DNA from: an uncultured virus (IMG/VR IMGVR_UViG_3300035520_000621)
Taxonomy: Duplodnaviria; Heunggongvirae; Uroviricota; Caudoviricetes
Strand: one strand, 5' to 3'
Length of the DNA: 20,000 nt
IMG/VR virus record: IMGVR_UViG_3300035520_000621
In this document: one piece after another, positions 2,876-20,000 of the stretch
Layout of the letters: each line of letters opens with the position of its first letter
Position numbering within the stretch: position 1 is the stretch's first letter
Program-made: the position numbers and the translations under genes
Notes under the pieces: generated by a model
What the model was told of the DNA's origin: nothing
Seen by the model: only the letters and a program-made list of their open reading frames with translations
The model's database searches: none

Positions 2876-2907
2876 GGTATCACACTCGGTATCACATCGG
2901 TATCACA
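2876..2907 (+). repeat. attP arm-type sites, left cluster (3x GGTATCACA)
   Basis: GGTATCACA at 2876-2884, 2888-2896 and 2899-2907. Confidence 0.8.
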
Positions 2908-2910
2908 TAA

Positions 2911-2940
2911 TCGGGAAATATCGGGATAAATCGGGATAAA
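2911..2940 (+). repeat. Three phased 10-bp repeats TCGGGA(A/T)A(T/A)A; putative Xis/RDF binding sites
   Basis: tcgggaaata tcgggataaa tcgggataaa, between arm sites and core; one-helical-turn spacing. Confidence 0.65.
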
Positions 2941-3023
2941 CCGAAACAGCGTTAAAAGGTGTAAAATGCCAATTTTATAGCCATAACAGCTTATTAACCC
3001 GATACATAGACCCTGAAAATGCC

Positions 3024-3053
3024 AAAAAAGCCACCTCAGTGTAAGGTGGCTTT
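3024..3053 (-). terminator. Rho-independent terminator following the tRNA 3' fragment
   Basis: 10-bp stem AAAGCCACCT/AGGTGGCTTT with 7-nt loop; reads GGTGGCTTTTTT on the minus strand. Confidence 0.85.
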
Positions 3054-3076
3054 GTGACCTCGGAGGGGTTTGAACC
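3054..3076 (-). mobile_element. attP core = 3' end of a tRNA gene (T-loop, 3' T-stem, 3' acceptor strand); possibly tRNA-Arg
   Basis: Minus strand G-GTTCAAAC-CCCTC-CGAGGTC-A-C; no 5' half present; flanked on both sides by arm repeats; next to int. Isoacceptor is a guess from the implied GACCTCG 5' acceptor. Confidence 0.8.
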
Positions 3077-3116
3077 TTACTTTTAATTGGTTGGTTTATA
3101 ATATTTTCAGAATATC

Positions 3117-3147
3117 GGTATCACATTGGTATCACATTGGTATCACA
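3117..3147 (+). repeat. attP arm-type sites, right cluster (3x GGTATCACA, 11-bp period)
   Basis: GGTATCACA at 3117-3125, 3128-3136 and 3139-3147. Confidence 0.8.
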
Positions 3148-3149
3148 GC

Positions 3150-3599
3150 TCATTTTCTATTTAACATTTCAAGTAAAGTAGAGATTTGCGCATCCTTTGT
3201 TTTTAGTAAGTCAAGCAGTTTGTCTACGTAGTCAGGAGTGTTGCGATGATAGCTCATGGCTTGATAATCCTCGACCTCTCCAATTTCAGGAAAATCGTCA
3301 TTCGTCTCAACATTTTCGGTGGGTTCGTTGTTGTCTTGGCAACTATCACCATTTAACTCGTTTGTATGAATAAGCATATCACCGTCACCAAGCAGCACCC
3401 AATATATAGACAATTCAGGAAATTGTTGAATAAGTTGTGCCAACCCTTCTGCACTGATGCTTGGAGTTTTGGCGATATATCCGGGGGCTTTATTTAGAGC
3501 CTTATCAATAGTGGAATTATTATGCCCACATTCGTTGGCGAATTTTCTAACTCTATCGGCAATTGCCAAAGATATGGCTTTGTTTTTCTCATTAACCAT
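3150..3599 (-). CDS. CI-like phage repressor (XRE-type HTH N-terminus, coiled-coil C-terminus, no S24 peptidase)
   Basis: 'IADRVRKF...NSTIDKALNKAPGYI..SISAEGLAQLIQQFPELSIYWVLLGDGDML' is typical of Bacteroidetes phage repressors; divergent from the early operon; C-terminal 'LLKTKDAQISTLLEML'. Confidence 0.8.
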   Translation of the reverse strand: MVNEKNKAISLAIADRVRKFANECGHNNSTIDKALNKAPGYIAKTPSISAEGLAQLIQQFPELSIYWVLLGDGDMLIHTNELNGDSCQDNNEPTENVETNDDFPEIGEVEDYQAMSYHRNTPDYVDKLLDLLKTKDAQISTLLEMLNRK

Positions 3600-3708
3600 A
3601 GCGAATAAACTAATAAAAATTGTTAATACTTTGTCTGTTACCCAAACATATTTGGAAAGTTGGGATATTCGCTATATATTTGCATCGAAAAAAGAAAATT
3701 ATAGCGAA
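3598..3708. promoter_or_regulatory. Putative operator half-sites ATAGCGAA(TA)
   Basis: ATAGCGAATA at 3598-3607, perfect inverted copy TATTCGCTAT at 3666-3675 (inside the rightward promoter), ATAGCGAA at 3701-3708. Confidence 0.55.
3651..3682 (+). promoter_or_regulatory. Rightward early (lytic) promoter
   Basis: TTTG 3651-3654, 20-nt spacer, TATATTTG 3675-3682. Confidence 0.8.
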
Positions 3709-4339: not shown

Positions 4340-4567
4340 ATGATGCGAGTACGGACTCGACATCATGCACGTAACATACCAACGTGTGCTACAATGGGTA
4401 TGCGCTGATTATATAGCGACCTATATAATGTAATTCTATGACAATTCAACTTTATCGTTGGATTTTTAAACTGTTCAAAATAATTACAACATATACAACG
4501 CGGTGGCTTCCACAGATATATTTCTGACTGTTTCTTGCAAAGTTAAGTGGGTCACCGCGTTTTTTTT
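4340..4567 (+). ncRNA. Putative structured RNA or leader between xis and the exonuclease, ending in a terminator-like stem
   Basis: Hairpin 4340-4366; possible pseudoknot 4367-4402; perfect hairpin 4408-4429; long-range stem AACGCGGTGG/TCACCGCGTT (4497-4561) running into a T8 tract. Confidence 0.45.
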
Positions 4568-4575
4568 AATTTGGA

Positions 4576-8393: not shown

Positions 8394-8719
8394 TTATGAG
8401 GATATGTGAATTTATGACGATTGATATTGGTGGCAATATTTTCAAGTGGATTACAAAGCCACAATACGATGTTGACGGCAAAGTTTGGTTTAGCCCACGT
8501 GGTGAACATCCACAACGGCTTACCGAGCTCGATGTGCGCTATATGTTCTCAGACTTTGATTACAGTGTTGGCGTTGGTATTTACCCACTTAAAGCCAAAC
8601 ACAAAATCCCGTTTTTCGAGGTATGTTGCAATCGTGGCAAGCAAAACGAATATACGCAGCGAGTGCCGATAGCTAACACCAAGATATTGGCAGAAGCTGC
8701 AAGGAAAGATAAACGTTGA
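8390..8719 (+). CDS. Hypothetical protein
   Basis: 109-aa ORF tiling the operon. Confidence 0.6.
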   Translation: MIMRICEFMTIDIGGNIFKWITKPQYDVDGKVWFSPRGEHPQRLTELDVRYMFSDFDYSVGVGIYPLKAKHKIPFFEVCCNRGKQNEYTQRVPIANTKILAEAARKDKR

Positions 8720-8779
8720 CCAAGAGAGGTTGACAATTTTTTATTTTTACTGTGGGGCGTGGTCCACGCGTCCCTACAA

Positions 8780-8857
8780 GGGCGGTAAACTAAATTTAAT
8801 TAAATAGAGTTTTTTTGTTGAAGGTTAGTTGTGGGGGTTCGACACCCCCACCGCCCA
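8780..8857 (+). ncRNA. tRNA-like RNA (perfect acceptor stem and T-arm; no D or anticodon arm)
   Basis: GGGCGGT (8780-86) pairs with ACCGCCC (8850-56), discriminator A; T-arm GGGGG-TTCGACA-CCCCC (8833-49); interior AT-rich with a single AACTAA/TTAGTT stem. Confidence 0.75.
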
Positions 8858-8868
8858 CTACTTATGTT

Positions 8869-9159
8869 ATGGTAAGCAATCACACAAAGCAAGTGCGAAA
8901 ACTCGCAGGGTTTTATCTCAATGTGGCTGACTTAATCCGCAAGGATATTCAGCATCGCACCACGCTCGACAAAATAGCCGATAAGTACGACCGCAATATG
9001 GCGTATTCGTGGATGCAATGGAGCGATGCCAAGCAATGGTTTACAAGTGGTATTGGTGCTGATAATACACTTGAATACTATCTCAAATCACACTTGCTTC
9101 TTGTGTCACTTACTGAATTATACCATATCATTAGAGAATACTATAACTTAAATTATTAA
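8869..9159 (+). CDS. Hypothetical protein
   Basis: ATG 8869, just after the tRNA-like element. Confidence 0.65.
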   Translation: MVSNHTKQVRKLAGFYLNVADLIRKDIQHRTTLDKIADKYDRNMAYSWMQWSDAKQWFTSGIGADNTLEYYLKSHLLLVSLTELYHIIREYYNLNY

Positions 9160-9165
9160 CATACA

Positions 9166-9475
9166 ATGAATTACCCCCCCCCACCGTCATCAAGACCCAC
9201 ATCTTGATGATTTACTCCTCCATTTATACAATACGGAGGCAGAGCTAAAAAAGATTGGAAACCTCCGCAGTGAATTGCGCAGCCAAATTCTCAAAGCGAT
9301 GCAATCTAATAAAATAGAAAAATACCGCACCGATTTCGTTTGCTGTGAAATATGCCCACCAAAAACACGGCATAAGGTAGACACAGATAGACTAAAGAAG
9401 TTCTACTCTGACGTATTTTTAGACTGCACAGAATTGGTTGAGGTTGCTGCATATATAAATTGCAAATGGGATTAA
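9166..9475 (+). pseudogene. Gene out of frame at a C9 tract; restored product ~102 aa, coiled coil resembling the C-terminal domain of YqaJ-type phage nucleases
   Basis: ATG 9166 after an A-rich leader stops at TGA 9205-9207. With C8 it reads MNYPPHRHQDPHLDDLLLHLYNTEAELKKIGNLRSELRSQILKAMQSNKIEKY...VDTDRLKKFYSDVF...WD to TAA 9475. Confidence 0.7.
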
Positions 9476-11458: not shown

Positions 11459-11695
11459 ATGAATAAAGAAACATTTAAAAAAGCAATCAAATTGCATAAG
11501 GAACTTATAGACCTCGAAGCGATAAAGAACGGAAGATATGAACTCGAATACACAATGTGCTACGGAACTATGTGTTTGCAAGCAGGTGCGGGAAACGCAA
11601 GGTTTAGAGAAATCCTCAAGCCGCACGAAGAACAAATCAAAAAAGAGGTTGACGATGCAATTGAGGACGTTAAACAACAGACAGCTGAATTGTGA
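11459..11695 (+). CDS. Hypothetical protein
   Basis: 78 aa; overlaps next gene. Confidence 0.65.
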   Translation: MNKETFKKAIKLHKELIDLEAIKNGRYELEYTMCYGTMCLQAGAGNARFREILKPHEEQIKKEVDDAIEDVKQQTAEL

Positions 11696-11913
11696 TTATG
11701 GGGAATAAGCCTAACAAAAAGCGAGATATAGAAGTCACGATATTCGCTTTATTAGCTGTTATATCGTTCCTTGCTTTTTGCCTCCTATTTGTAGATTTCG
11801 TACACGAGCATTGGGGCTACAAGCCGTTATACGCGCTGTTGGCGTTGCTGTTCTCAATAATATTTTTTATGATAAGCGTTAAAACATTTGACGATAATGG
11901 AAGTAAAGATTGA
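11692..11913 (+). CDS. Small two-TM membrane protein
   Basis: Two hydrophobic stretches 'VTIFALLAVISFLAFCLLFV' and 'LYALLALLFSIIFFMISV' after a basic N-terminus. Confidence 0.7.
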   Translation: MIMGNKPNKKRDIEVTIFALLAVISFLAFCLLFVDFVHEHWGYKPLYALLALLFSIIFFMISVKTFDDNGSKD

Positions 11914-12376
11914 CAACAAATGGCGTGAAGTCACAGAAGTAGGCATTAAAGATAATGATGGCTACAATGTCGCACCCGAACGCATAACAGACGTTAAGCT
12001 CAACGGCAAGCAGTTATTCGGTAATTCCGAACAAGTGATAGTACAACTTCAACATTGGTACATGTTCAAACGCTATCTGTTGACGTTGGACGGTGCAAGC
12101 GTACAGCTTGAACTCTACGATAAGCCTCTTGGCGATGATAAAGTTACAGCTTACATTTACGCACTTTGGGCAGATGAGAGCGACCGTAGACAAGGTAAAG
12201 CGACCAAGCTAATGGACGCAGCAGAACGCATTGCCAAGCAGTGCGGCTACAAAGACGTGTTCCTCGAATGGCACAAACAAGAAGCCGAACGCTCAACACT
12301 TGAATGGTACGAGCGCAGAGGCTATGATATGGTATCTTTTGACACGCAATCAACGCTTTTAAAGAAGATGTTATGA
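11897..12376 (+). CDS. GNAT-family acetyltransferase with N-terminal extension
   Basis: Motif A 'IYALWADESDRRQGKATKLMDAA' (RxxGxA) and motif B 'LEWYERRGY'. Confidence 0.85.
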   Translation: MEVKIDNKWREVTEVGIKDNDGYNVAPERITDVKLNGKQLFGNSEQVIVQLQHWYMFKRYLLTLDGASVQLELYDKPLGDDKVTAYIYALWADESDRRQGKATKLMDAAERIAKQCGYKDVFLEWHKQEAERSTLEWYERRGYDMVSFDTQSTLLKKML

Positions 12377-12562: not shown

Positions 12563-12934
12563 ATGGAATACAATCTATATAAAGCATGGTTGCAATCATG
12601 CCTTAATGCAGGAATACCCGCGCTTTCGCTTGATACGTGCTGCCGACTACTCGCTATCGTTTATGTAATCGGCGGCTCGATGGAGGCATTCACGCACAAC
12701 GGCAAACTGATGGCAGAATGGCAGTATGCACAAAAACGGCTCAACATCGTTGGTGGAGAGACACCAAACGAAGTTGGAGCGATGTTAATAGAGCAATATG
12801 TAAGTGAGCTTGAGACATACTATGCAAATGCACCATATAAAGGCAATGCAAGCAGCCCGCTTGCAAAAGAACACCCCGAATGGGTAGTAGAGTTTATGGC
12901 TAAAAGATACAACATAGAACATCTTTGGATATGA
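12563..12934 (+). CDS. Hypothetical protein overlapping the serine recombinase start
   Basis: 123-aa ORF. Confidence 0.7.
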   Translation: MEYNLYKAWLQSCLNAGIPALSLDTCCRLLAIVYVIGGSMEAFTHNGKLMAEWQYAQKRLNIVGGETPNEVGAMLIEQYVSELETYYANAPYKGNASSPLAKEHPEWVVEFMAKRYNIEHLWI

Positions 12935-13797
12935 TATACGGATATTTACGTGTGAGTTCCGATGAGCAAGATGTCAACTCACAAAAGCAAGGAGTAGAAA
13001 AATTCGTTCAAGGCCGCAATTGGAAGATAGACCAATATATCACTGATGAGGGCGTTAGTGGCGGTAAAGACCCCTCAAAGCGCAATCTTGGCAAACTGAT
13101 GAAACTTTGGAAGAAAGATGACATCATCATCTGTTCCGAGATAAGCCGCCTCGGTCGTGACCTCTATATGGTGATGGATATACTTCACTTCGCCATGACA
13201 CAAGGCTGTGTTATCTATACCGTCAAAGACAAGTTCGTCCTCGGCAATGACATCCAAAGCAAGGTGTTGGCATTTGCTTTCGGTCTGTCTGCCGAGATAG
13301 AGCGTCAGATGATACAGCAGCGTACAAAGGAAGGATTGCGATTAAGGATGAAACTTGGCGTGCTTGTTGGTAGACCTCTTGGCAGCGTGCGAGAAGGACC
13401 TGTCGCTGATATAGACAAGGAACAGCTAATTGAACAATACAAATGGGGTGTGCCTGAGAGACGATTGGCTGTCAACTTTGGCGTAGACCGCAATACGATT
13501 GTTCGTTGGCTACACCGATGGGGTTTGAAGCCCAATGCAGCAATAGAGAAAGCGGAACAACAGCGCAAGGAGAATAGCAAATACTTGTACAAAGAAGATG
13601 GTTATCAGATTATTGAAGATATTGACCGTGATAAGCTAACGCGATTGATTGGCTTAGACTTGACAATACCACAAATATCAGAGCAATTTCCTGAGTACAC
13701 ATACGAGCAGGTGTATGACACGATACTCTGTGATGATGAGCTTAATCCCTTGTACCACAAACATGGTCAACGCAAGGCTCGCCGCCCTAAAAAATAA
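12925..13797 (+). CDS. Small serine recombinase (resolvase/invertase family) with HTH and extra C-terminal domain
   Basis: 'YGYLRVSSDEQ' (catalytic Ser), 'DEGVSG', 'SEISRLGR', 'AEIERQMIQQRTKEGL', 'GRP', HTH 'ERRLAVNFGVDRNTIVRWL'. Confidence 0.93.
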   Translation: MDMIYGYLRVSSDEQDVNSQKQGVEKFVQGRNWKIDQYITDEGVSGGKDPSKRNLGKLMKLWKKDDIIICSEISRLGRDLYMVMDILHFAMTQGCVIYTVKDKFVLGNDIQSKVLAFAFGLSAEIERQMIQQRTKEGLRLRMKLGVLVGRPLGSVREGPVADIDKEQLIEQYKWGVPERRLAVNFGVDRNTIVRWLHRWGLKPNAAIEKAEQQRKENSKYLYKEDGYQIIEDIDRDKLTRLIGLDLTIPQISEQFPEYTYEQVYDTILCDDELNPLYHKHGQRKARRPKK

Positions 13798-13815
13798 CCC
13801 CAACAAATATATGTC

Positions 13816-14064
13816 ATGAATGAAATAAACACCCAAACACTCGACAGCATTGAACGCATTGCGGCAGCGGCACAACGATTGTCCGACAAACTGCAATTGC
13901 TGATGTTGTGCGATACAGACCAACTTGATGTGGTTGGCAGTATGGTAGCAAGAAAGTTAGACGCGCTTAACGCCGCACTGTATGACGTTAACTTACACGC
14001 AACCCCGATACACCTCGATGTATGGGGATATGTCAAACAACGAAAAAGGGAAATTTCTGAATAA
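13816..14064 (+). CDS. Hypothetical protein
   Basis: 82-aa helical ORF. Confidence 0.6.
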   Translation: MNEINTQTLDSIERIAAAAQRLSDKLQLLMLCDTDQLDVVGSMVARKLDALNAALYDVNLHATPIHLDVWGYVKQRKREISE

Positions 14065-14094
14065 TTCCCGATTTTCCCCTATTATTTCCCTATT

Positions 14095-14514
14095 ATGGAA
14101 GCAAAAGAACCCCGATACAGAATAGAGATGACACAATCGCAGTTGGCACTCATCGCGCGTTGCATCGAAGATGTTAACCGCTTCATGTGCGGTCAGACTG
14201 AATTATTCAACTCGACCGTATTGCTCGAATATAGCCACGAAGTGCAAGAGCTGCTCAAAATGTGCTATCCGTGTGTTGTTCCCGAACTGTACAAGAAATA
14301 TGGCGGATATGGTGCATCTCACGGTTGGAACGGCGGCAGTTGCTCTAATGAAGCGCAACGCAAGTTCATCGCGCAGACGTACTACCTCTACCGCGAAATC
14401 TATCACCAATTAGAAGTGAACCGCGAGCCTAAGACCAATGATTGGAACGTCTATCAAGGCGAAACATTGCGCTGCGAAGATAGTGGCGAGCCAATAAAAA
14501 TCACCAAGTTATGA
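14095..14514 (+). CDS. Hypothetical phage protein
   Basis: 139-aa ORF. Confidence 0.7.
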   Translation: MEAKEPRYRIEMTQSQLALIARCIEDVNRFMCGQTELFNSTVLLEYSHEVQELLKMCYPCVVPELYKKYGGYGASHGWNGGSCSNEAQRKFIAQTYYLYREIYHQLEVNREPKTNDWNVYQGETLRCEDSGEPIKITKL

Positions 14515-14660
14515 GTGGCAGAACAGAGCAAGCCAAGCAAACGACCAATAGCAATGACTTCCGTAGCCGTTTCACCGTCATGACAGACGATGAATACAAC
14601 AAGGCACTCGAAGCGTTGAAACGAGAGTTTGGAATAACGAATAAAACGATTAAACAATGA
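14511..14660 (+). CDS. 49-aa hypothetical protein (below ORF-track cutoff)
   Basis: MSGRTEQAKQTTNSNDFRSRFTVMTDDEYNKALEALKREFGITNKTIKQ; ATGA overlaps at both ends. Confidence 0.7.
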   Translation: MSGRTEQAKQTTNSNDFRSRFTVMTDDEYNKALEALKREFGITNKTIKQ

Positions 14661-15025
14661 GTAACAAACCAAAGAAATTCAAAATTAGCGCGGAGGAACA
14701 ACGCTACAACAAAATGGCGGCAGACATAGAAGCCGCACCACTGTATGACGGGCGTGGCAAAGGCATAGACGTTTACCGCTGTCAGCAATGTGGCGAGGAA
14801 CAATACACCTATTACCGCGACAAGGGTGTGACACCGTTCCTTATCCACTGCAACAAATGCGGACAGATAGCACAACACCGTACAACACTCAAAGACATAG
14901 GCGTAGACCATAGAACACTCAAAGCATGGGTGCGCCCAACCTACGAGCAATTCACACGATTGGAGAGAGGACTGCGCGACCACGTTTTACGCGGTGGCTT
15001 AGTATTAGAGGAGGACATCAAATGA
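14657..15025 (+). CDS. Zinc-ribbon protein
   Basis: CQQC...CNKC; 'DKGVTPF'. Confidence 0.7.
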   Translation: MSNKPKKFKISAEEQRYNKMAADIEAAPLYDGRGKGIDVYRCQQCGEEQYTYYRDKGVTPFLIHCNKCGQIAQHRTTLKDIGVDHRTLKAWVRPTYEQFTRLERGLRDHVLRGGLVLEEDIK

Positions 15026-15339
15026 AAGGAGAACAACCACTGATTGCATATCCTGCCGATATATGGCTTAACTCGCAACTTAGCGTGGCGCGATATTCGG
15101 GTGGCTGCACTATCAACCATCAACGCTATTACGTTATGGAGCAGACCGATGACCTTGTACGCTCCGACTTCGTGTCGATGTACAACCAATTGGGTAGACA
15201 GCGTTTCTTTGGTGTATTGGCAAACGCTGATGCGCCGATTAATACCGTGGCACAGTTCCGCGCTGCCTTGCGCGTATATACCGCATCGAAACAACAGATA
15301 AATCATGATGACACCGAACAATTAGAATTACCGATATGA
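15022..15339 (+). CDS. Hypothetical protein ending in a beta-clamp-binding-like motif
   Basis: ATG 15022 (ATGA overlap); C-terminus QLELPI. Confidence 0.65.
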   Translation: MKGEQPLIAYPADIWLNSQLSVARYSGGCTINHQRYYVMEQTDDLVRSDFVSMYNQLGRQRFFGVLANADAPINTVAQFRAALRVYTASKQQINHDDTEQLELPI

Positions 15340-15743
15340 GAACATTGGCTTTTACCAACGATACCGTCAATAAGGAGCTAAGACAAACGGCGCAAGCCGA
15401 AAAACGCCCCGAACTCGCACGTTTCCTTGAATTTGGCTCGGCAAACGGCTATGTGGCTGTACCGCCCGAACACCCTTACTACGGCAAAGGTTATGAAGAT
15501 GACGACATATACGATTTAAGTGTACACGGTGGCATCACCTTTGCCGCGAAATACGGAATTAGAAAACGGTATGGTTGGGAAATACAAAAACTCAACAATG
15601 ACGTTGAACCGCAAGACGATTGGTGGGTGTTCGGCTTCGATACATTGCACTGTGGCGACAATGCGGTTAATTGGAGTATAGACAAGGTGGAAGCGGAAAC
15701 GCTGCGCCTACAAGAACAATTAGAAGCGATATGGCAACAGTAG
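15336..15743 (+). CDS. Phage protein of unknown function
   Basis: 'NGYVAVPPEHP..G', 'VHGGITF', 'WVFGFDTLHCGD' pattern common in phage early regions. Confidence 0.75.
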   Translation: MRTLAFTNDTVNKELRQTAQAEKRPELARFLEFGSANGYVAVPPEHPYYGKGYEDDDIYDLSVHGGITFAAKYGIRKRYGWEIQKLNNDVEPQDDWWVFGFDTLHCGDNAVNWSIDKVEAETLRLQEQLEAIWQQ

Positions 15744-15997
15744 TTTCTAACCCCAAAGGCTACCGCGTGATAGAGTGTACCAACAGAGAACTCGGCGCGG
15801 TCACGGGTTTGTATGACTGTATCTGCGACAACTGCAACGAACCAAAGTAACACGGCTACCTAATTACAGTGCTTAACGCTTGGTTTTGCGAGGAGTGCTA
15901 CAATGAGTTTATGCAAAATAACAACCCTTACCCCGAAGATGAGCCATACGAACTGATGCACTTCCGATATTGGAAAGACGCTTTATTCATAAGATAA
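15731..15997 (+). pseudogene. Zinc-finger (CxxC...CxxC) gene broken by an in-frame TAA
   Basis: MATVVSNPKGYRVIECTNRELGAVTGLYDCICDNCNEPK*HGYLITVLNAWFCEECYNEFMQNNNPYPEDEPYELMHFRYWKDALFIR; internal TAA at 15848-15850. Confidence 0.75.
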
Positions 15998-16021
15998 ACC
16001 CTTAAAACAAGAGAATAGACC

Positions 16022-16300
16022 ATGTATTATACAGACATACCCGCCACAGTTGGCGAGATACAAGCACAGCACGAAGATACCATAAGACACGGCAGCTTTG
16101 TGCGTGATGAAACACTCTCTAAATACCGCATAAACGACCGCGTAGAGTTCAACGTAGGAACACACAACCTACAAGGCAGGATTACCAACGTGAACAACCG
16201 CGGTGGATTATTCTATTACCATATCGCCACCGATGATGGCGTTTGGTATCGTAATATTGACGAACAATTAATAGTCAACTCACAATGGAACAAGAAGTAG
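16022..16300 (+). CDS. Hypothetical protein with SH3/KOW-like beta domain
   Basis: 'KYRINDRVEF......QGRITNV......YYHI.....WYRNIDEQLI'. Confidence 0.6.
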   Translation: MYYTDIPATVGEIQAQHEDTIRHGSFVRDETLSKYRINDRVEFNVGTHNLQGRITNVNNRGGLFYYHIATDDGVWYRNIDEQLIVNSQWNKK

Positions 16301-16548
16301 ACGACTTCGATGACTATAAAGTCAACGAAGCTGTATTTGCAACACTCGACCTTATCAACGAGCGCAACATGAACGACATGGAAACTATGGCGTACCTTTC
16401 AACCATATACGCTAATTGTGAGAATGCGATAGCGGATTATTACCGCAAAGAGGATTACTGCGAGCAATTGGTCAAAGGATTTATCGCGGAATACCGCGAC
16501 AAGTTCTTTACCGCAGTTGATATGTTGTTAGATGATACCACAGAATAG
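16285..16548 (+). CDS. Acidic hypothetical protein
   Basis: 87 aa, D/E-rich. Confidence 0.65.
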   Translation: MEQEVDDFDDYKVNEAVFATLDLINERNMNDMETMAYLSTIYANCENAIADYYRKEDYCEQLVKGFIAEYRDKFFTAVDMLLDDTTE

Positions 16549-16555
16549 CATAACT

Positions 16556-16813
16556 ATGAACAGATTACCATTATTGATATTCCTCGCCGTGATGACCTTC
16601 GTAGCCGCAACAGCCTACAAGATTGGCTATGACTACGGTTGTGAGGTTGGGCAAGAAAAAGAATTTAACCGATTGCAAGCATATTACGACCATGTTGACT
16701 CGTTGGCTACGGAAGTGTACAACGAATATGCCGCAATGCGAGAACTTCGCCAACAGCTAATAGACACAGTATATGACCCCGACAACACTACCGTTGCGCC
16801 CGCAACGCTCTGA
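16556..16813 (+). CDS. Membrane-anchored hypothetical protein
   Basis: N-terminal TM 'LLIFLAVMTFVAATAY' followed by 'GYDYG' and a coiled coil. Confidence 0.65.
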   Translation: MNRLPLLIFLAVMTFVAATAYKIGYDYGCEVGQEKEFNRLQAYYDHVDSLATEVYNEYAAMRELRQQLIDTVYDPDNTTVAPATL

Positions 16814-17450
16814 CATATTCACCGTTACACCGCAACGCAAGTCACTGCATGACATTGAGGATGATGAGTTGCTGTTTCGTATCGCCTATATTCCGTATGT
16901 GATTGGTGCGGTGGCGTGGGATTGGGTAGACTCAATACTCAACCAAGCGGCACAGATGCGTATATCGGCGACAAAAGGTCTTGCGCGTGGCATACGCGAC
17001 CTAAAAAAGAGCTATGACCGCTTCCGCGAAACGTCTATCTATCAGCAGTTGTGTGCCGAAGCGCAGCATCATTGCGAGTGCTTCCAAGACGGATATGCCG
17101 ATTACTTTGCCGATATGTACAAGGGCATGAAAGAGCAGATACGTTATTACTATCCGCATTTGCTCGCGCAATGGGTGGACTTCAAAGCCACGGTCTACGT
17201 GACGTTGGTTGTCATAAAGGCACTGCATCGCTACGTGGCGTGGTGCGACAAACGCATACGCGAACTGTTGGGCGGTGCTGACAATTCAATCCTGCCGCAG
17301 CATTTCCAACTGTTGTACACGTTGGCCTACGTCTACCTCGGTGACGACAACAAGGCTATCAGCATGGATGATCTAAGCGCGGAAGTCGAAGCACTGACCG
17401 ATGTAATTCATAATATCAAGTTTTCAAAAGATAAAGAAGATGGGCAATAA
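16773..17450 (+). CDS. Hypothetical helical protein
   Basis: 225-aa ORF tiling the operon. Confidence 0.7.
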   Translation: MTPTTLPLRPQRSDIFTVTPQRKSLHDIEDDELLFRIAYIPYVIGAVAWDWVDSILNQAAQMRISATKGLARGIRDLKKSYDRFRETSIYQQLCAEAQHHCECFQDGYADYFADMYKGMKEQIRYYYPHLLAQWVDFKATVYVTLVVIKALHRYVAWCDKRIRELLGGADNSILPQHFQLLYTLAYVYLGDDNKAISMDDLSAEVEALTDVIHNIKFSKDKEDGQ

Positions 17451-17910
17451 AGGTTTCAAGCAGCGGCAATATAAATGGCGTGGGCGCAGCCGCAAAGGCG
17501 TATGGTACTACGGCATTATAATATGCGTCAACAGCATAGATTGGTATATCATTCAAGAGCCAACAGCCTACGTTGATGCACACATCATTGAGTTTAGCCG
17601 GTATAATGGCGCAGTGTTCCAACATGTGCAAGCGCACACAATAGGCATTTACTCTGAATATCACGACCGCAAAGGCAAAGAAATCTACGAAGGTGACATC
17701 TTGAGAGGTCGCCGCAAATCAGAAAAAAGAAACGACATTTGGGTCGTCGAATTTGACAAACACAGTTGCCTGACATTGAGGCGTATTACACCAACCCTGT
17801 CAGGGCGTTGCAATGTTGTCTTTATTGACGAACTTGCGCGATGTGAAGTCATTGGCAACGCAGCTGAGAATAAAGAACTTTTAGAGCCACGAAATGATGA
17901 AGTACGATAA
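17440..17910 (+). CDS. YopX family protein
   Basis: 'YKWRGRSRKGVWYYG', 'TIGIYSEYHDRKGKEIYEGDIL', 'EVIGNAAENKELL'. Confidence 0.88.
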   Translation: MGNKGFKQRQYKWRGRSRKGVWYYGIIICVNSIDWYIIQEPTAYVDAHIIEFSRYNGAVFQHVQAHTIGIYSEYHDRKGKEIYEGDILRGRRKSEKRNDIWVVEFDKHSCLTLRRITPTLSGRCNVVFIDELARCEVIGNAAENKELLEPRNDEVR

Positions 17911-18139
17911 TACAAAAACGCCTGAACCAATCATGGCGAAGGCAGAGCAAGCAGTCAAAGAATTTGTGGCGAGTTTTTCAACTAAAAGAGCTTATTTAAT
18001 TGAATACAAAGACGGACGAGAGGATTTAAATATCATTCAATCAAACAGCGTACCCGATGTGTATTTTGTCAAAATGGAGATAACGGCATTAATCCCGTTT
18101 GACTTGTCAGACAAAGATAAGACGATTTACAAAGATTAG
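17894..18139 (+). CDS. Hypothetical protein
   Basis: 81-aa ORF. Confidence 0.6.
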   Translation: MMKYDNTKTPEPIMAKAEQAVKEFVASFSTKRAYLIEYKDGREDLNIIQSNSVPDVYFVKMEITALIPFDLSDKDKTIYKD

Positions 18140-18158
18140 ACTATTAATAATCAAAACA

Positions 18159-18527
18159 ATGGAATTAAACGAATACCAAAAAGCAGCGATGACAACTTGC
18201 ATGACAAGTTGTGATAACTTTGCCTACATGATGCTTAACCTTGTTGGTGAAGTTGGCGAGTTTGCAAGCAAAGTAGCAAAGGCAATCAGGAGAAAGCAAA
18301 TGATTGTATTCGATGACGACATTAGATTTGTGCTTGGCACTGATGAGCAAAAACAAGACGAGTTGTTTGACGAACTCAAAAAAGAAGCAGGCGATATTGC
18401 ATGGCAACTCGCAGGTCTTTGTCAAGCCATGGGTTGGACTTTAGAAGAAGTTTGCCAACAAAACCTTGATAAGCTTGCATCTCGCAAGCAGCGTAACGTA
18501 ATTGACGGAGACGGAGATAATAGATAA
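18159..18527 (+). CDS. MazG-like nucleoside triphosphate pyrophosphohydrolase
   Basis: 'MELNEYQKAA', 'LVGEVGEFASKVAK' (ExxE), 'KKEAGDIAWQL' (ExxD), 'NLDKLASR..R.VIDGDGDNR'. Confidence 0.92.
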   Translation: MELNEYQKAAMTTCMTSCDNFAYMMLNLVGEVGEFASKVAKAIRRKQMIVFDDDIRFVLGTDEQKQDELFDELKKEAGDIAWQLAGLCQAMGWTLEEVCQQNLDKLASRKQRNVIDGDGDNR

Positions 18528-18531
18528 GGCA

Positions 18532-18735
18532 ATGAGACGCAGAAAAGAACTACCGATAGTCACCCCTGACGTAGCACAGTCCGACCCGCACAAGGATACT
18601 CGACCTGTGCGCATTGACGCGAGAACTGTTATCTACGTACCGAGAAAGCTCAATGAACAGCAGACCGCTGAGTTTGTCGCCCGTTGGAAAGAAAATGTCA
18701 TTAAATTCAGGAGGTGCAATAAGCCGAACTTTTAA
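18532..18735 (+). CDS. Hypothetical protein
   Basis: ATG 18532; 'PVRIDARTVIYVP'. Confidence 0.6.
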   Translation: MRRRKELPIVTPDVAQSDPHKDTRPVRIDARTVIYVPRKLNEQQTAEFVARWKENVIKFRRCNKPNF

Positions 18736-18751
18736 ACGGATATTACCGCTT

Positions 18752-18997
18752 ATGCCGCGTTACCGCGCAAAGGAATTATCGTCAGGTGAATACGTTGAAG
18801 GATATTACGTTGAATACCATATACCAACATTCAATGACATCACCCACTCTTACGATAAATACGAGACGACAGCGGCATTGTTTAATGACGAATTTGGAGA
18901 ACGTGCAGATTATAGCTATTGGCACACAATTGACATTAATACGCTTGAACTAATCGAGCCTGAACGCAATCTATTTTCAAATGAAGATGAAGCCTAA
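18752..18997 (+). CDS. YopX N-terminal-like short protein
   Basis: 'RYRAKELSSGEYVEGYYV ... IDINTL'; lacks the IYEGD and GNI motifs. Confidence 0.6.
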   Translation: MPRYRAKELSSGEYVEGYYVEYHIPTFNDITHSYDKYETTAALFNDEFGERADYSYWHTIDINTLELIEPERNLFSNEDEA

Positions 18998-19723
18998 CCA
19001 CGTACACTGTTTCTTTGAGCAGTCGGGGACTTTCAAAAATGAGTTTATCAAGCTCGGCATTCCCGCTTATGACTACGACATTCAAGACAACTTTAATCAA
19101 ACCGATTACGTCATAGACTTATTTGGTGAGATAGACAAGGCGTATAGGGGGGGGTAAGTTGCTTTGATACAATAACTTGCAATGATTTAATCATCGCGTT
19201 CTTCCCCTGTATATACTTTTGTCAAAGTTCAATGATACTATTCTATTGGACGACTCAAAATTATAAACATTTATCGCAACACGATAAGACCATTGCGATA
19301 CTTGACAGAGCCGAGAAGCGCAATAATTTTTATATGCTATTGATAAAGCTATTCGCGGTGTGTAAGGAGCGAGGTTTGCGGCTAATTGTTGAAAACCCTT
19401 GGACTCAGCCACACTTCCTACGGAATAACTTTTTACAAAATCCATCATACATAGATAAAGACCGCAGCCGCAGAGGTGACTATTTCGTCAAACCTACGGC
19501 GTATTGGTTTGTGAACTGTGAGCCTTGTGACGGATTTACATATCAGAAGGGTAAGCAAATTAAGATAATAAATAATTGCAAAGGTGGAATAAAAGCGGGC
19601 ATTTGCTCAGAGGAGCGTTCAATGATTTCCTCTGATTATGCTCGCAATTTCATCTGCGACCAGATACTCGGAATTAATCAACCACAAAAAGGTAAACAAT
19701 TACATTTATTCGACAATGTATAA
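18981..19723 (+). pseudogene. C5-cytosine DNA methyltransferase-like gene split by a G8 tract (OFF frame as assembled)
   Basis: Frame from ATG 18981: MKMKPNHVHCFFEQSGTFKNEF...DKAYRGG* (TAA 19155). The -1 frame continues VSCFDTITCNDLIIAFFPCIYF...LIVENP...KPTAYW to 19723. FPC resembles motif IV, VENP motif VI, CFFEQSG motif I. Confidence 0.75.
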
Positions 19724-20000
19724 CGACATAATTACAAACACCGAAAAGGTTGACATTGGCGACATTCACTTAATTCATGGTGATTGTCTTGAAGTACTTC
19801 GGCAACTTCCAAGTGGCTCGTTTGACTTGGCGATTGTTGACCCGCCGTATGGCAATGGGCTTGCTGATGGGAACGGGGGGGTACAACCCCACTCAGGTTT
19901 CATGGAGGCGACAGGTGGAACAAATATCTCAGCAAAGTGGAACAGGTTCGGAGGGCTGTTCGACCGATACAAGACGGACAGAACACCGCAACTTGCGAGG
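19716..20000 (+). CDS. Amino (N6-A/N4-C) DNA methyltransferase, beta-class order; partial (not in ORF track)
   Basis: MYNDIITNTEKVDIGDIHLIHGDCLEVLRQLPSGSFDLAIVDPPYG...; 'GDCL' and catalytic DPPY; open to the window edge. Confidence 0.9.
   Translation, partial: MYNDIITNTEKVDIGDIHLIHGDCLEVLRQLPSGSFDLAIVDPPYGNGLADGNGGVQPHSGFMEATGGTNISAKWNRFGGLFDRYKTDRTPQLAR

Follow-up and report, generated by a model that had tools for sequence, protein, structure and literature searches.

An uncultured phage (IMG/VR record IMGVR_UViG_3300035520_000621) carries, in the space separating two of its early genes, a 78-nt tRNA-like element, which occupies positions 8780–8857 (+) of the whole 20,000-nucleotide stretch that we analyzed, hereafter the window. 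We identify it as a modified, no longer decoding derivative of a valine tRNA gene. The best reading of its role, which we hold tentatively, is that of a signal resembling the t-elements of plant mitochondria, at which RNase P and RNase Z would cleave the message.

Anatomy and valine tRNA ancestry

The acceptor stem of the element consists of seven Watson–Crick pairs out of seven, formed by GGGCGGT (8780–8786, +), which was recognized by direct reading, by a descriptor and by covariance-model alignment, and ACCGCCC (8850–8856), which together with the discriminator A8857 (position 73) makes up the 3′ strand read at 8850–8857 (+). The T arm (8833–8849, +), apparent both in the sequence and to the covariance model, has a 5-bp stem (GGGGG, 8833–8837, with CCCCC, 8845–8849) and the loop TTCGACA (8838–8844), closed by G53–C61; T54, T55, C56, R57 and A58 are all there, and the arm directly adjoins the 3′ acceptor strand, as it does in a tRNA. 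The bases that follow A8857 are CTACTT, and CTA is one base off CCA, so CCA is not encoded.

The interior (8787–8832, +), as delineated by reading, by RNAfold and by alignment with tRNA-Val, comprises 46 AT-rich nucleotides: its G+C content is 9/46 (20%), against 25/32 (78%) in the top half and a window average of 42.6%. It begins with what is left of a D stem, namely three pairs out of four (A8789–T8810, C8790–G8809 and T8791–A8808, or A10–U25, C11–G24 and U12–A23 in tRNA numbering), enclosing a D loop that is made exclusively of A and T and, at 14 nt, is 6 nt longer than usual. This enlarged loop corresponds to a perfect 12-bp palindrome, ATTTAATTAAAT (8794–8805), plus its flanks. The remaining 22 nt (8811–8832) contain no usable stem and are exactly as many as a canonical tRNA devotes to position 26, anticodon arm and variable loop; apart from the six additional D-loop bases, the overall length is canonical for a tRNA. 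Upon reading the interior we found neither a D-loop GG (G18–G19) nor an anticodon stem–loop, TTTTT and GTTAG being unable to make a 5-bp stem. The structure returned by RNAfold was a three-way junction at which the acceptor stem and the T arm meet a long, imperfect AU hairpin (−31.1 kcal/mol, z = −4.18), as stable as which none of 200 shuffles folded.

An initial annotation of this DNA had described the 78-nt length, the perfect 7-bp acceptor stem with its A discriminator, the 5-bp T stem with its TTCGACA loop and the unencoded CCA, all of which direct reading bore out. The same holds for the AT-rich interior of 46 nt devoid of a D-loop GG or anticodon arm, and for its AACTAA/TTAGTT stem, which belongs to the minimum-energy structure. 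The phrase "complete loss of the bottom half", instead, was overstated, given that a D-stem remnant and the canonical length persist.

The valine ancestry emerged from a search of viral contigs for GGGCGGT...ACCGCCC combined with a TTCGA T loop: ARAGORN classified as tRNA-Val 72 of the matches listed, which numbered at least 116. The GGGCGGT/ACCGCCC acceptor with A73 is the tRNA-Val signature. A covariance model built from 32 of the tRNA-Val sequences found through the acceptor pattern gave the element 35.2 bits (E = 1e-7), a score inflated by the search pattern having fixed the acceptor; the alignment covered the acceptor and T arm only, while 33 model positions were skipped via a local end. 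By eye, element positions 8–13 and 20–25 (AAACTA...TAGAGT) could be matched to TAACTC...TAGAGT in 4 of the 32 tRNA-Val sequences, a subtype with which the D-stem remnant is identical in three pairs out of four. The 22 nt at the anticodon position, again counted by eye, showed about a third identity to any aligned tRNA-Val. The element shares with canonical phage and host tRNA-Val an identical 7-bp acceptor, A73 and a canonical T arm, but lacks their G18–G19, anticodon stem and loop, and CCA. Taken together, the acceptor/A73 signature, the D-stem remnant and the length indicate a modified tRNA-Val rather than a chance fold. Its bottom half is scrambled rather than cleanly deleted.

Automated classification agreed with this description. 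ARAGORN found no tRNA in the window, and Rfam gave no match there at gathering score; the four matches seen at E ≤ 10 (E from 3.1 to 6) we read as chance. Among the traits on which RF00005 and ARAGORN rely, the element displays the 7-bp acceptor stem with discriminator and the T arm, and is devoid of a D arm with G18–G19, an anticodon stem–loop and a family-threshold score. Like the tRNA-like domain of tmRNA, it combines acceptor and T arm without an anticodon arm. However, we rejected a tmRNA identity (RF00023, RF04321): the third acceptor pair is G3–C70 rather than G3–U70, the Rfam tmRNA match covered the T arm only (8.2 bits, E = 0.21, versus a gathering score of 47 bits), no permuted-tmRNA match was found, and the element, at 78 nt versus ~350, has neither a tag reading frame nor pseudoknots.

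Operon context, relatives and look-alikes

The window corresponds to the left portion of a temperate phage. On its minus strand is the gene of a tyrosine integrase that has Arm-DNA-bind_5 and SAM_5 domains; the plus strand carries genes for an excisionase-like HTH protein, an exonuclease, RecT, a Holliday-junction resolvase, three YopX proteins, a DUF551 protein, a GNAT acetyltransferase, a serine recombinase and a MazG protein. Since the named relatives of the integrase are from Bacteroides (about 50% identity, 50% to a Bacteroides clarus integrase), the host is, by integrase similarity alone, probably a member of the Bacteroidota, and the absence of Shine–Dalgarno sequences fits. A closer integrase, P0002, is 87% identical. 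The integrase gene is flanked by arm-type direct repeats, with GGGATATATC twice on one side, and five copies of GTGATACC(A/G)AT plus about three of TTTATCCCGA on the other; these repeats (1588–1615 and 2900–3150) are probably the phage attachment region.

The element sits on the coding strand in a 149-nt gap between a stop codon at 8719 and an ATG at 8869. The upstream ORF (8414–8719, +; 109 aa), whose longest frame starts from TTG 8390 and whose likelier start is ATG 8414, had no Pfam, PHROG, NCBIfam, PADLOC or Atlas match. Past its stop codon the gap contains, in this order, a weak, terminator-like hairpin followed by a T-rich run (8715–8749, +; GTTGACC/GGTTGAC, 7 pairs including 2 G–U, −7.6 kcal/mol), a GC-rich hairpin (8751–8778, +; 11 bp with one bulge), the element, and an 11-nt spacer, CTACTTATGTT (8858–8868, +), that includes no Shine–Dalgarno sequence. 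The GC-rich hairpin, already pointed out in the initial annotation, is real (−17.2 kcal/mol, with 0/200 shuffles equally stable) and ends 1 nt 5′ of the element. The downstream ORF (8869–9159, +; 96 aa) likewise had no Pfam, PHROGs, NCBIfam, PADLOC or Atlas match; its ATG at 8869 agrees with the N-termini of its relatives in contigs L003 and L004, and neither the ORFs nor those N-termini supported an in-frame start for this gene inside the element.

We scanned the window with the Bacteroidetes-type −7 promoter motif. Plus-strand matches occurred at 3675 and at eight other sites, the nearest being 6675, and there was none in the 149-nt gap, so that the element is probably transcribed from upstream, as part of a long rightward early message. 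A sigma-70 promoter scan did not rise above shuffles.

Other features of the rightward operon were noted along the way. Just upstream of the exonuclease gene, at about 4497–4570 (+), a strong hairpin (GCGGTGGC...GTCACCGC) followed by T8 resembles an intrinsic terminator; one would then have to assume antitermination, or else a separate transcription unit. Homopolymer tracts in two intergenic gaps (C9 at about 9174–9182 and G8 at about 19150–19157) could be slippage-prone. Finally, at 11692–12376 (+), the start of the 162-aa GNAT acetyltransferase gene overlaps a 73-aa ORF without a family match, in a layout that appears reminiscent of small two-gene modules.

A second copy of the element is present in an IMG/VR contig (L001/L209) that is 97.6% identical to the window over 6.5 kb. 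All 78 positions are the same in the two copies, but at that divergence the probability of zero changes is 0.15, and the change-free run (8772–9058, 287 nt) extends for some 200 nt into the next gene; the identity is therefore uninformative on selection. Within the gap, all four differences fall in 8720–8779 and none in 8780–8868 (P = 0.025, weak evidence). The GC-rich hairpin of the relative bears three substitutions and still folds (−15.6 versus −17.2 kcal/mol). From two near-identical copies no evidence of covariation could be drawn.

L003 and L004 hold relatives of the downstream gene that are more distant (58–60% identity); in both, the gene overlaps or abuts a different upstream ORF and has neither the element nor a tRNA beside it. 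The element is thus not needed for expression of this gene family, and the differing upstream genes place it at a mosaic boundary. As far as these two relatives show, the element is not the decayed form of a tRNA still carried here. In the record of a relative (G002), RF00005 had no match at E ≤ 1 and ARAGORN called no tRNA. The weak tRNA-model match encountered elsewhere in the phage (G001 8352–8438, 18.1 bits, G001 covering of the window only 12613–20000) was discarded, as by eye it reads as an open frame and ARAGORN calls nothing.

Searches for further copies returned little else. In viral contigs, an exact 27-mer of the element occurred only in L001; the acceptor and T-loop pattern retrieved the element once (L065) among the matches listed, at least 116 in number. 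A GGGCGGTAAA...GGTTCGA pattern did so in 1 case out of 83. A degenerate purine/pyrimidine pattern gave 22 loci in metagenome contigs, none of them homologous, the returns not including the window's own lineage. Genome contigs yielded four matches, all of which were tRNAs or tRNA 3′ halves of Planctomycetota or Armatimonadota. Neither blastn nor tblastn against 50,697 phage records produced a significant match, and the only loci related to three neighboring proteins were the L001/L209 relative and, without the element, L003 and L004.

The T arm, GGGGGTTCGACACCCCC, was found in seven viral loci, at none of which ARAGORN called a tRNA. We considered whether it could mark a family of non-canonical phage tRNA look-alikes, and rejected the idea because closure by an acceptor-like stem was not above decoys. 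Its 15-nt core had 62 distinct matches, 12 of them ordinary tRNAs; the remaining 50 showed perfect 7-bp closure in 3 cases (versus 6/200 decoys) and closure with G–U allowed in 8 (versus 24/200). One of the seven loci is a permuted (two-piece) tmRNA (L264:979–1254, −; RF04321, 78.3 bits) located in a 298-kb viral contig.

Some other look-alikes deserve mention. An 82-nt one, exemplified by L017:1500–1582 (−), recurs in 16 of the at least 116 viral-contig matches listed (L017, L029, L033, L044, L056, L062, L063, L076, L078, L093, L094, L097, L107, L110, L118 and L125), with size variants of 80 nt (L035, L037, L042) and 79 nt (L055, L074). With G as discriminator, it has normal acceptor, D and T arms, but where the anticodon arm should be there is a CTCCC-GCAA-GGGAG hairpin; ARAGORN passes over 15 of the 16. 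A metagenome contig, L216, holds a 78-nt element (677–754, −) in one slot of an array with nine Rfam-called tRNAs; it has a tRNA-like acceptor with two G–U pairs, a T arm and a non-cloverleaf interior, and neither ARAGORN nor Rfam calls it. Both the GNRA-capped 82-nt family and the L216 element resemble ours in keeping acceptor and T arm while the decoding part is replaced; neither shares its interior sequence, and the 82-nt family differs further in having a full D arm and passing the Rfam tRNA threshold (44.5 bits on L017). One Alienimonas genome, moreover, has two copies of a tRNA-Val(TAC) 3′ half that runs from anticodon arm to discriminator and is not accompanied by a 5′ half (L007:380–425 and L009:380–425); they resemble the attachment-site duplications of integrative elements.

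Candidate roles of the element

If the element is a processing signal, it would still fold as the acceptor/T-arm minihelix recognized by tRNA-processing enzymes. Host RNase P would cut at 8779/8780, whereupon the GC-rich hairpin (8751–8778) would protect the 3′ end of the upstream mRNA, and RNase Z, or another 3′ endonuclease, would cut after A8857, which is possible because CUA, not CCA, follows. The products would be a tRNA-like RNA some 78 nt long and a downstream mRNA whose leader measures 11 nt, the operon being punctuated in the manner of plant mitochondrial t-elements. Transcription through the site, the two cleavages and an effect on expression are what we infer from the layout, in which a stable hairpin immediately precedes the predicted RNase P site and the next start codon comes 11 nt past the predicted 3′ cut. 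For RNase P, RNase Z and the CCA-adding enzyme, the stacked acceptor and T arm are sufficient. On the other hand, a missing D-loop GG, by which the tRNA elbow is formed, and an unencoded CCA both lower recognition by bacterial RNase P, and the fact that the element lacks the two counts against the processing reading. Among the roles suggested in the initial annotation, that of an mRNA processing signal best fits the anatomy (coding strand, within an operon, hairpin on the 5′ side, near a start codon).

The same annotation had argued for selection rather than decay. Half of this argument held: gradual neutral decay is excluded by the pattern of change, as the anticodon region is randomized while 24 of 24 top-half stem bases pair and the T-loop consensus is intact, and as AT-biased drift would have struck the GC-rich stems first. 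The other half, selection, gained no support from the relatives, of which the near-identical one is uninformative and those in L003 and L004 have no element. Besides a selected minihelix, a few recent segmental events in the interior might account for the structure, provided that there were at least two of them and that length was preserved by luck.

This leads to a serious rival, which we regard as somewhat unlikely, namely that the element is a non-functional remnant of a captured or carried tRNA-Val gene. A D-loop insertion and a replacement of the anticodon arm would have inactivated the gene recently, and the top half would be intact merely through lack of time. Several observations are in keeping with this: purifying selection is not evident from only two, near-identical copies; the CCA has already turned into CTA; the distant relatives of the downstream gene in L003 and L004 do without the element; the position is a mosaic boundary, with a different upstream gene in those contigs; and mobile elements commonly have incomplete tRNA copies around them, the tRNA-Val 3′ halves of L007 and L009 being an example. 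What weighs against a remnant, besides the contrast between about one-third identity at the anticodon position and a fully paired top half that excludes gradual decay, is that the D-stem halves persist on either side of the inserted palindrome, so the interior must have undergone no fewer than two separate events; that the replaced anticodon/variable segment kept its canonical 22 nt; and that the GC contrast (20% versus 78%) is sharp.

An unlikely alternative is a trans-acting, tRNA-scaffolded small RNA, whose top half would serve processing and stability while the RNA acts elsewhere, either sequestering, as a decoy or sponge, host factors or defense enzymes with affinity for the acceptor end or T arm, or regulating through its AU-rich arm. 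Such an RNA would have the same anatomy as a processing signal, tRNA size is preserved, and other non-decoding tRNA look-alikes exist in viral contigs; also in its favor, phage tRNAs that counter tRNA-targeting defenses are known, according to a preprint (bioRxiv 10.1101/2023.03.15.532788). However, the strongest duplex between the interior and the window (−25.4 kcal/mol) was equaled or bettered by 2 of 20 shuffled interiors, there was no Rfam match to C4, Y RNA or another family, PADLOC labeled as defense-related none of 22 window proteins (neighbors included), and a promoter of its own is not evident. With no antisense target above the shuffled background, the small regulatory RNA proposed in the initial annotation found no backing. 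In one specific form, judged decidedly unlikely, a converted tRNA-Val top-half RNA would be excised by RNase P and RNase Z, capped with CCA and act in trans, possibly as a decoy for a host defense enzyme or toxin directed against tRNA acceptor ends or T arms, or as a tRNA-scaffolded carrier of the AU-rich arm.

The C4 antisense RNA of phages P1 and P7 is a related case, as its precursor is reportedly cut by RNase P. Like C4, the element would be a phage-encoded, roughly tRNA-sized RNA released from an operon transcript by way of a tRNA-like acceptor helix, although here the release is a prediction. Unlike C4, it has no complementary target downstream; we discarded a C4 identity given that Rfam gave no C4 match at E ≤ 10 and that the duplex scan remained within the shuffled range.

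We attach little probability to a DNA-level function, such as a palindrome bound by a protein, or a site of replication or recombination with nested inverted repeats around an AT-rich core. It is true that ATTTAATTAAAT is part of a longer, imperfect palindrome of 26 bp with GC-rich inverted repeats on its flanks, that two GTTGAC(C/A)A repeats lie just upstream, and that a gene with a partial match to the replication initiator O occurs 1.2 kb upstream. Such a function would nevertheless leave unexplained the exact tRNA-Val acceptor, A73, the T-loop consensus and the tRNA spacing. In addition, the arm-type repeats are beside the integrase (1588–1615 and 2900–3150) rather than at the element, which on this basis was also rejected as the phage attachment site.

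Lastly, a chance resemblance of an AT-rich spacer to the top half of a tRNA is scarcely credible, and already very unlikely on the sequence evidence: even though the scan takes in very many subsequences and decoy 7-mers closed a T-arm-like hairpin with a 7-bp stem in 6 of 200 trials on real viral DNA, the acceptor and discriminator are specifically those of tRNA-Val, the D-stem remnant agrees with a tRNA-Val subtype, the total length is that of a tRNA, and a strict top-half descriptor (7 Watson–Crick pairs, 30–60 nt, a 5-bp T stem, a TTCRANN loop and an adjacent 3′ strand) matched the window once, at the element, and none of 2000 dinucleotide shuffles (13 of 2000 with up to two G–U pairs).

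Likeness to t-elements and implications

The closest functional parallel to the proposed processing signal is offered by the t-elements of plant mitochondria, which have a GGTTCRANYCC T arm and whose ends match those that cleavage by RNase P and RNase Z gives to mRNAs (Forner et al. 2007, PMC1920247). CCA-type additions, too, are recorded there on the released t-element RNA (PMC1920247). Compared with the t-elements so described, the phage element is likewise a tRNA-derived, non-decoding fold, with T arm and acceptor stem intact, a non-canonical remainder and a location inside a predicted mRNA, directly beside coding regions. Its T arm agrees with the published motif at 10 of 11 positions, having A where the plant motif has a pyrimidine. 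The t-elements treated in that source are, however, organellar and their ends have been mapped, whereas the phage element belongs to a virus of bacteria; the two share no sequence homology and the analogy is one of function only.

Were the element only a relic, it would be an unremarkable vestige left in a mosaic phage genome by the turnover of tRNA genes. Were the excised RNA to act in trans, it would represent a new kind of phage counter-defense RNA in Bacteroidota. If instead the element is cut as proposed in the processing reading, a stripped-down tRNA would serve a bacterial virus as punctuation in a polycistronic message. Punctuation of this sort is documented for organelle genomes and for a few eukaryotic long non-coding RNAs; we know of no tRNA-like mRNA punctuation in phages of Bacteroidota, where mRNA processing is poorly known. 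The finding would then add to the hints that phages keep non-decoding tRNA look-alikes, and would provide a compact processing and stability module for gut-bacterial genetics.
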